Part shown: piece by piece, positions 4,705 to 28,886 of the stretch | Layout of the letters: each line of letters opens with the position of its first letter | Numbering within the stretch: the stretch's first letter is position 1 | Assembly (NCBI GenBank): GCA_039798825.1 | Contig: JBDKFI010000001.1 | Location: 1-39,785, forward strand | Length of the DNA: 39,785 nucleotides | Direction of reading: 5' to 3' | Origin: Candidatus Parcubacteria bacterium | Lineage (GTDB): Bacteria > Patescibacteriota > Minisyncoccia > Phycocordibacterales > UBA5272 | Made by a program: the position numbers and the translations under genes | Notes under the pieces: model-generated | What the model saw: only the letters and a program-made list of their open reading frames with translations | Database searches by the model: none | What the model was told of the DNA's origin: nothing

Positions 4705-5088
4705 ATGAATATCGAAGAACGTAAAAAAGAATTATCGGACGAAGAAAAACATGTGCTCTTTAATGGTGGTACAGAAGCGCCTTTTACGGGTGAACTTTTA
4801 CATGAGCATAGAAAGGGAAACTTTATGTGTAAGGTGTGTGGTACGCCACTTTTTTCTTCGGACACTAAATTTGATTCAGGTACAGGGTGGCCATCATTTG
4901 ATCAAGCCCTTCCAGGGGCTGTTGAATATGTCGAAGATGCCACGCTTGGCATGGTTCGCACTGAAGTGAGGTGTGCAACATGTCACGCACATCTAGGTCA
5001 TGTTTTTGACGACGGTCCAGGAACAACAGGTAAACGATACTGCATGAACTCAGTGTGCATGGAATTCGCAGAAGATACAGCTGTATAG
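4705..5088 (+). CDS. msrB: peptide-methionine (R)-S-oxide reductase MsrB
   Basis: 127 aa SelR domain with CKVCGTPLF and CATCHAHLGHVFDDGP zinc CxxC pairs, GWPSF, and the RYCMNS catalytic Cys. Confidence 0.92.
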   Translation: MNIEERKKELSDEEKHVLFNGGTEAPFTGELLHEHRKGNFMCKVCGTPLFSSDTKFDSGTGWPSFDQALPGAVEYVEDATLGMVRTEVRCATCHAHLGHVFDDGPGTTGKRYCMNSVCMEFAEDTAV

Positions 5089-27296: not shown

Positions 27297-27713
27297 ATGT
27301 TAAAGCTCAAAGTAGTCACTCCCGATAAAGTGCTCGTCGACGAAATCATCGACAGTGTTTCTATCCCAACCACAACGGGTGTGATTAGTGTGCGAAGTAA
27401 ACACGTACCACTTGTTTCTACGATTAAATCAGGGGAGATGATTGTCTACAAAGCAGGAACAGGGCTTGGGTATGCTGTGTTTAAAGGTTTGGTGAACGTG
27501 CGCCCTCACCGTAAGGGACTCACTGAAGTTGTGGTATTGCTTGAGCGATCAGAACCTATCGAAGAACTTGATCATGCACGTGCAGAAGAAGCGCTTGCTC
27601 GTGCACGGGCCATGGCAGACGAGAAGGATGATGACGTAGACTTCGGACTTTTCGAAGGACTTATTGAAAAGGAACTCAATCGTGTGAAGATCGCAAGGAA
27701 ATATAAGAGATAG
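27297..27713 (+). CDS. atpC: F0F1 ATP synthase subunit epsilon
   Basis: 138 aa with a beta-sandwich N-terminal part (LKVVTPDKVLVDE..) and a helical C-terminal part (RAEEALARARAM). Confidence 0.88.
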   Translation: MLKLKVVTPDKVLVDEIIDSVSIPTTTGVISVRSKHVPLVSTIKSGEMIVYKAGTGLGYAVFKGLVNVRPHRKGLTEVVVLLERSEPIEELDHARAEEALARARAMADEKDDDVDFGLFEGLIEKELNRVKIARKYKR

Positions 27714-27761
27714 CTGGGGGAGATAGACAGGAGACAGCAGACAATAGAAAGATAACAGAAC

Positions 27762-27789
27762 AAAAAAGCCTTACATATAAGGCTTTTTT
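27762..27789. terminator. bidirectional intrinsic terminator after atpC
   Basis: aaaaaa, agcctta, cata, taaggct, ttttt. Confidence 0.8.
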
Positions 27790-27819
27790 GTATGTATTGG
27801 ATTTTGTTATAAAAAAGAC

Positions 27820-27847
27820 TTGACAATTCTTGAGAATTTGATATCAT
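27820..27847 (+). promoter_or_regulatory. promoter TTGACA-N16-TATCAT for the ncRNA candidate
   Basis: TTGACA at 27820-27825 and TATCAT at 27842-27847. Confidence 0.55.
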
Positions 27848-27852
27848 TAGTA

Positions 27853-28045
27853 GTGACCAGAGGTTTGGTCGGGGTCCACCCGTCCTGTAATCTCTAGTAG
27901 ATCTTGATGTTTGAGGAATGGTCAGCCTTAATAAACGTCAAGATAGGAACGTACGATCCGAAATTTCGTACGGGAGATTTGCCTCCTTAAATGGCAAACC
28001 GTCAAGGACCTGACGCGAGCCCCCAGCATGTGCTGGGGGCTTTTT
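27853..28045 (+). ncRNA. ~190-nt structured non-coding RNA candidate of unknown class
   Basis: No ORF; it lies between a good promoter and a strong terminator (gcccccag catg ctgggggc ttttt, 28019-28045). Internal hairpins are 27855-59/27866-70, 27901-09/27936-44 (9 bp), 27950-56/27966-72 (7 bp) and 28000-04/28011-15. Confidence 0.45.
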
Positions 28046-28106
28046 ACATTTTGATCTTTTTTCAATATATAAAAATATTGATTCATTCTTGTTTCAAGCT
28101 TCTATT

Positions 28107-28886
28107 TTACCGTGGGAAGAAAATGGCAAACACGATGATACCGACTATGATGCGATAGAATCCGAACGCGACAAACGTATGTTTGCGAACATAGTCCAAG
28201 AATAGTTTGATGACAAAGGTGGCGATCACAAATGAGGTGACCATACCAACTGCGAGCGTCGAAAGATTGCCCGTTTGAAGCACAACATCTGCATGTTTGT
28301 ATATCGAATAGAGCGTGGCGGCTGACATGGTTGGAACCGCAAGGAGAAATGTGAATTCTGTGAGCATCGATCGGTCTAATTTCATAAGTAATCCTCCAAC
28401 AATGACAGAGCCAGAACGAGATACACCCGGGATCATGGCAAGTACTTGATAGAGTCCAAGGAGAAATGCTTGCTTCACGGAAACATCGTGATGTAGTTTC
28501 GTTTCTCCGTTTTGCTGTGCTTTGTAGTAGCTGTTTTCAACGAAGAGGATGATGATTCCACCAACAAACAATGACACACCAACGATAAGAGGACTTGTGA
28601 GAAGTGCTTTTAAGTGTGGATAGATCACAAACCCGGCGATGCCGGTTGGGATAAATGCAACTGCGAGGCGCTTGATCATCGGAGCGGTGAAGATGCGTTT
28701 CCAGTACATGTAGAGCACTGCACCTATTGCACCGAGTTGAATTGCAACTTCAAATGCTATCAAGAAATCTGTCTGAGCGATCTTTAGTATGTGTGACGCA
28801 AGGATGAGGTGTCCTGTAGAAGAAATTGGGAGGAATTCAGTGAGTCCTTCGATGATACCGAGGTAGAGTGCTTGAATAATGTTCAT
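28107..28886 (-). CDS. uppP: undecaprenyl-diphosphate phosphatase UppP (BacA)
   Basis: 259 aa from MNIIQALYLGIIEGLTEFLPISSTGHL, with PGVSRSG and eight TM helices. The start at 28886 fits the TGGTATGAT box 6 nt upstream. Confidence 0.9.
   Translation of the reverse strand: MNIIQALYLGIIEGLTEFLPISSTGHLILASHILKIAQTDFLIAFEVAIQLGAIGAVLYMYWKRIFTAPMIKRLAVAFIPTGIAGFVIYPHLKALLTSPLIVGVSLFVGGIIILFVENSYYKAQQNGETKLHHDVSVKQAFLLGLYQVLAMIPGVSRSGSVIVGGLLMKLDRSMLTEFTFLLAVPTMSAATLYSIYKHADVVLQTGNLSTLAVGMVTSFVIATFVIKLFLDYVRKHTFVAFGFYRIIVGIIVFAIFFPR

Follow-up and report, generated by a model that had tools for sequence, protein, structure and literature searches.

The window analyzed here is a stretch of 39,785 nt from the genome of a Candidatus Parcubacteria bacterium, in which the genes atpC and uppP converge on a gap of 393 nt. 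Direct reading places the stop of atpC at 27713 and the end of uppP at 28107, in agreement with the original prediction, which had also described the gap as free of ORFs; the longest frames that we found in it are of 25-55 aa. A consensus scan of the gap returned a single outstanding promoter and a single strong + strand terminator, both anticipated by that prediction. The promoter scores 11/12 and carries a TG before the -10 hexamer, while the terminator, with its stem at 28017-28042, lies 170 nt past the promoter and also past the terminator that belongs to atpC itself. The latter had been proposed as a separate element at 27762-27789, where we read a perfect 14-nt inverted repeat, and the atp operon is terminated upstream of where the putative sRNA unit begins. 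The second terminator has no U-tract on the opposite strand and is oriented for the + strand only. The RNA itself has a GC content of 48-50%, compared with 32% and 19% for the pieces of spacer on either side of it and 45% genome-wide. The positions of all these features are compiled in Table 1.

Table 1. Features predicted in the atpC-uppP spacer. Positions are counted from the first nucleotide of the window; H1 to H5 are the hairpins of the minimum free energy (MFE) fold.
Feature	Position	Strand	Description
atpC intrinsic terminator	about 27760-27791	bidirectional	A6-GCCTTA-CATA-TAAGGC-T6; 14-nt arms 100% complementary
Sigma-70 promoter	27820-27847	+	TTGACA-N16-TATCAT; extended -10 TG; A-rich stretch immediately upstream
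Predicted transcript, ~195 nt	27853-28047	+	start inferred 6-8 nt after the -10, end in the U-tract
H1, 5' domain	27856-27898	+	AGAGGUU/AAUCUCU around GGGG/CCC(G); apical loop GUCCA
H2	27901-27944	+	interrupted stem of 16 pairs, two of them G-U; 9-nt loop AAUGGUCAG
H3	27950-27972	+	7-bp stem CGUACGA/UCGUACG; 9-nt loop UCCGAAAUU
H4	27978-27998	+	6-bp stem UUUGCC/GGCAAA; 9-nt loop UCCUUAAAU; includes GCCUCCUUA (27981-27989)
H5	28000-28015	+	5-bp stem CGUCA/UGACG; loop AGGACC
Intrinsic terminator	28017-28047 (stem 28017-28042)	+	11 pairs, 8 of them G-C; 4-nt loop; U5

The quality of the promoter was evaluated by scanning the whole 0.51-Mb assembly of the source genome, with shuffled genomes as background. 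Sites scoring at least 11/12 number 30 in the real genome and 7-16 in the shuffled ones, and the difference is much larger for the TG of the extended -10, which is found in 16 of the 30 sites but in only 0-1 (about 0.6) in shuffled genomes, an enrichment of about 25-fold. Since TG-bearing sites of this score are so rare in shuffled sequence, the promoter of the atpC-uppP spacer is far beyond what chance would produce. Most sites scoring at least 11/12 are followed either by a structured leader of 40-90 nt that precedes a GC-rich small ORF with a strong SD, or by a short unit that lacks an ORF and ends in a terminator. Based on its sequence, the promoter studied here belongs to the same class as those predicted to drive the accessory, SD-led small-ORF cassettes of this genome. 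Other examples of near-consensus promoters are located at C3:24471, C6:8172, C10 (minus strand, 19763), C21:3651, and C33:5665, and the genes under such promoters look like an accessory class, probably acquired, with an expression grammar of its own.

Folding of the segment 27853-28048 gave an MFE of -81.2 kcal/mol, which corresponds to z = -6.1 when the terminator is included (0/200 shuffles as good) and to z = -2.9 when it is left out (1/200 shuffles as good), the latter being a modest gain over shuffles. The - strand folds at -67.4 kcal/mol, 14 kcal/mol worse than the + strand, whose structure includes five G-U pairs that become A-C on the opposite strand. Four stems had been paired by hand in the original prediction, and all four can be formed where they were placed; the MFE fold retains three of them and drops GACCA/UGGUC, which gives way to a larger alternative 5' domain (H1) and persists as an alternative local hairpin within it. 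The fold also adds a fifth hairpin that had gone unnoticed, UUUGCC/GGCAAA, with arms at 27978-83 and 27993-98. According to the partition function, the apical loops are unpaired with probabilities of at least 0.92, and the trinucleotide UCC is present in three of them.

Some further pairings were considered within the same RNA. The segment AAUCUCUAGUA (27889-27899) can pair with UACGGGAGAUU (27969-27979) at 82% complementarity, in competition with AGAGGUU (27859-27865), to which it is paired in the MFE fold, and this arrangement is a possible conformational switch. Two loop-loop pairings, GGUCC at 27873-77 with GGACC at 28006-10 and GACCA at 27855-59 with UGGUC in the loop of H2, were rejected as evidence because chance would produce about as many, by our own estimate over roughly 60-70 unpaired nucleotides.

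We searched for relatives of the RNA with several methods. BLAST against 40 relatives gave a match to the terminator only. We also built a covariance model from this one sequence folded into its MFE structure. It detected no homologue in 52 species of the same genus, and none in 150 genomes that represent 131 genera of the order; when 23 atpC loci were scanned with the filters of the model switched off, its best score, 16.6 bits, fell in an unrelated AT-rich spacer. Neither nhmmer, blastn-short, and tblastx on the atpC loci of relatives, nor the inspection of 6 metagenome loci, yielded a homologue; the RNA had no match in phage and plasmid collections, and its exact 19-23-mers had none in GTDB genomes and IMG/VR viral contigs. 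As a control, the tmRNA of the same genome, searched by the same BLAST route, matched 49 of the 52 congeners at 68-89% identity. The only other copy that we found is in a Logan contig of the same strain, an independent assembly that encodes identical AtpC and UppP proteins and in which the RNA is 100% identical. Because no homologues were found and the Logan copy is identical, no signal of covariation or of purifying selection can be read from these comparisons. Absent from about 200 related genomes, the putative RNA would be strain-specific, and any function that we ascribe to it is putative as well.

The gene pair that encloses the RNA behaves differently. The convergent atpC-uppP arrangement is widely conserved in the genus, while the spacer can be as short as 21 nt or as long as about 600 nt, with a content that is unrelated from one species to another. 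In three relatives, G016, G047, and G050, whose AtpC and UppP proteins are 84-86% and 73-75% identical to those of the source genome, the spacer measures 21 nt, 154 nt, and 349 nt, respectively, the last of these being of unrelated sequence. The spacer of G050, the closest relative (L004 1915-2263), contains two unrelated short units, each with its own G+C-rich terminator; in the second of them there is a promoter-like site, together with a 41-codon frame that includes Cys. The atpC-uppP spacer looks like a hot spot for small insertions. Given that the gene pair is conserved, that the spacers are variable and unrelated, and that the RNA has no homologues, we consider the unit to be a recent, lineage-specific insertion. 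With respect to a transposition signature, the flanks hold just a weak, AT-rich direct repeat of 27 nt with 70% identity.

Membership in a known RNA family was evaluated with Rfam. At gathering thresholds, the whole window contains three tRNAs and nothing else, and with permissive filters at E<=10 a region of 451 nt around the RNA returned only terminator look-alikes. The whole-genome search located RNase P RNA at C28:4569-4910 and tmRNA at C3:15593-15981, which shows that divergent housekeeping RNAs can be picked up in this genome; the RNA of the spacer is neither of these two.

The size of the RNA had led the original prediction to mention 6S RNA as an option, that is, a divergent RNA that would sequester RNA polymerase. 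The length of ~190 nt fits, and the likeness to RF00013 extends to the predicted gene, which stands alone and has a promoter and a terminator to itself. The place of a 6S RNA also appears vacant, since the Rfam model found no match elsewhere in the genome or in 40 congeners, although this model is weak and matches in just 5 of 14 control genomes. On the 451-nt region, however, RF00013 (gathering threshold of 46.4 bits) has no match even at E<=10, nor does it have one in the whole genome. The candidate is a chain of local hairpins that lacks the rod shape of 6S RNA, its closing stem, and its central bubble, and the partition function puts the expected number of pairs joining nt 1-45 to nt 121-165, where a closing stem was sought, at 0.13. 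It is also absent from the 52 congeners, most of which yielded tmRNA in the same search, so the conservation of a 6S RNA is missing. The 6S option did not survive these comparisons, and we regard it as extremely improbable.

A second housekeeping RNA to be weighed is a divergent SRP RNA. The 5' domain contains, in H1, one short motif, CCUGUAAUC, which we take to resemble the U-turn of the Alu domain and which lies beside a small G+C-rich hairpin, a likeness to the Alu-type SRP RNA (RF01854); the rest of the genome gave no Rfam match to an SRP RNA. Against this, the RNA matches neither RF00169 nor RF01854, it lacks the helix-8 motif, and it is not conserved among relatives. The small and large SRP RNA models have no match in the whole genome or in 41 relatives, and the model of the small SRP RNA likewise had none when 150 genomes from across the phylum were searched. 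The protein components gave the same picture: the Ffh M domain (PF02978) was detected in 0 of 41 genomes, and the SRP GTPase domain (PF00448) in 0 of 5, comprising the source genome and four relatives that are 100% complete. The DTAGR motif is absent from the six-frame translation of the source genome, no DNA that could code for it was detected in five near-complete genomes, of which two are closed, and the FtsY model returned only P-loop noise, while the SecY control was found in 5 of 5 genomes with E-values of about 1e-100. We excluded the SRP reading, whose probability is close to nil, on the grounds that the lineage shows no detectable SRP protein and that the RNA has neither a model match nor conservation.

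The SRP search led to an observation in its own right, namely that the whole SRP system is undetectable in this genome and in the Patescibacteria genomes that we sampled. Among 300 genomes of the phylum with at least 90% completeness, PF00448 has one real match. It has been mentioned in passing that many CPR bacteria lack SRP subunits (PMC8080830), and our literature search returned no in-depth treatment of SRP absence in these bacteria.

The chain of short hairpins, together with the loop AGGACC on a 5-bp stem that looks like a CsrA site, also gives the RNA some likeness to the CsrB/RsmZ sponges. The difference is in the number of GGA motifs, which by eye is four in 164 nt, where about 2.6 are expected, and only one of them is located in an apical loop. 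We rejected a sponge of this type because the GGA motifs are too few and because CsrA (PF02599) was found in 0 of 5 genomes, namely the source genome and four relatives. The search for Hfq gave a more varied result. In the two closest relatives Hfq is present (PF17209, E about 1e-29; G050:C1:24079-24264 and G016:C1:22120-22305), the search did not detect it in G017 and G023, and in the source genome the gene is missing from the syntenic site, which is contiguous in the assembly (C5, about 4735-4820). With hfq missing from this site and CsrA not found, any action of the RNA would be independent of both proteins.

The original prediction also pointed to a segment similar to the 16S anti-SD tail, GCCUCCUUA, whose CCUCC it described as exposed. 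This holds for part of the motif. The bases UCCUUA are free, with unpaired probabilities of 0.92-1.0, but GCC is paired in the stem of H4, with unpaired probabilities of 0.00-0.07 for G129, C130, and C131. The 8-mer CCTCCTTA is not enriched, with 13 genomic copies where 15.6 are expected, and the genome contains no exact complement of the RNA of at least 13 nt. When duplex energies were calculated against the 5' windows of ~500 genes, in a crude scan that uses no accessibility model, the best value was no better than those of 23 shuffles. None of the 16S rRNA signatures that we looked for (515, 1390, 1492, and the anti-SD region) was found in the 36 contigs of the assembly. SD masking by this RNA was speculation when it was put forward, and it is now weakened, with half of the CCUCC buried in a stem and the motif at chance frequency. 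In its strongest form, the idea would make the RNA a functional decoy of the anti-SD, in which UCCUUA and the UCC loops copy the 3' tail of 16S rRNA and mask the SDs of acquired SD-led cassettes, the core genes being leaderless; we consider this very improbable. If it were true, it would amount to class-wide translational control of foreign genes.

The unit has the generic features of a base-pairing sRNA: a promoter of its own, a Rho-independent terminator, and no ORF. From the comparisons described above, the predicted RNA is an orphan that falls outside the described RNA families and is not 6S, SRP, or another housekeeping RNA. Our preferred reading, to which we assign a probability of roughly 0.45, is that a non-coding RNA of ~195 nt is encoded by a young, stand-alone gene, restricted to a strain or species and inserted in the hypervariable atpC-uppP spacer. 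The RNA would be transcribed from the extended -10 promoter and would act in trans by base pairing, without Hfq. Pairing would take place through the single-stranded, pyrimidine-rich loops, that is, the three apical loops with UCC and the UCCUUA of H4, and the targets would be the purine-rich ribosome-binding sites of SD-led accessory genes rather than the leaderless core genes. That SD-led accessory genes occur under this class of promoter is consistent with the proposed targets.

The closest functional parallels are RNAIII and the Rsa sRNAs of Staphylococcus and RsaE/RoxS of Firmicutes, which reportedly are trans-encoded and pair with SD regions through pyrimidine-rich loops. The candidate resembles them in having a sigma-70 promoter and a Rho-independent terminator, in falling within their size range of 100-500 nt, in being non-coding, and in folding into several hairpins whose loops expose UCC or UCCU; action free of Hfq is plausible here as well. 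It differs from them in that they have genus-wide or wider conservation, mapped transcripts, validated targets, and C-rich motifs that are repeated and conserved, whereas the candidate, a predicted RNA, has neither a homologue nor a target signal.

The main rival of this reading is a decayed or functionless accessory cassette. Under this explanation, the unit would be the remnant, now devoid of an ORF, of one of the orphan cassettes, and although its promoter and terminator may still fire, the RNA would have no function. The class of its promoter is the one common to SD-led cassettes, none of the relatives carries the unit, and in other species the spacer hosts unrelated short units. An SD-like GAGGA, possibly residual, also precedes a frame of 31 aa that stops 3 nt before the terminator. 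In addition, a second unit without an ORF, C6:19194-19314, is likewise unique to this genome. However, the ORFs in the spacers of relatives have no similarity to the spacer studied here (tblastn and tblastx), and five near-perfect hairpins with G-U pairs in a GC island are atypical of a coding region in decay. We judge the remnant to be unlikely, though more plausible than any of the other alternatives. The same 31-codon frame (27918-28013, ATG to TGA) could instead be a living gene for a small protein, translated from the 65-nt leader of the promoter, and its geometry is suggestive, with a promoter, a hairpin leader, GAGGA beside the ATG, and a stop just ahead of the terminator stem. The GAGG, however, ends 1 nt before the ATG, which by the established rules of SD spacing is too close for SD-led initiation, and the frame crosses four stable hairpins. 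Its product would be hydrophilic and basic, whereas the small ORFs of the other cassettes are hydrophobic, and a comparison with 1.84 billion protein representatives, of low power at such a length, gave no relative. Translation of this frame is, in our opinion, quite improbable. A leaderless frame of 14 codons starting from the GUG at 27853 was judged too short to be meaningful.

A cis-acting role was considered as well, in which the element would be a buffer between convergent operons that stops read-through from atpC and collisions with transcription of uppP, the match to a promoter being incidental. The position between convergent genes suits such a role, and uppP has no U-tailed terminator, so that its transcripts would meet the hairpin at 28042-28017. 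Yet atpC has its own terminator, the closest relatives manage with spacers of just 21-154 nt, and it is very unlikely that a TG-bearing promoter of 11/12 is there by accident. A buffer is therefore improbable, and the reading as a young, stand-alone RNA gene is the one that we retain, as a reasonable sRNA candidate and not as a discovery, given that it is built on sequence signals. Our search of the literature returned no report on regulatory RNAs in CPR/Patescibacteria, and a stand-alone sRNA, once verified, would be a useful first example in these bacteria. Its apparent restriction to one strain, beside accessory cassettes with strong promoters, would also bear on the origin of RNA genes in streamlined genomes.

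Two additional elements under promoters of the same type were observed elsewhere in the genome. The unit at C6:19194-19314 on the + strand (locus L073:95-215), of a design similar to that of the spacer RNA, consists of a TTGACA-N16-TATACT promoter with TG, a hairpin-rich RNA of ~115 nt, and a terminator; it has no match in Rfam and no homologue among the 52 congeners. At C2:18896-18960, also on the + strand, a short G+C-rich hairpin with a U-tract lies within ~10 nt downstream of a 12/12 promoter that has the TG, and the gene that comes after it is SD-less and secE-like. This hairpin may be an attenuator-like leader.
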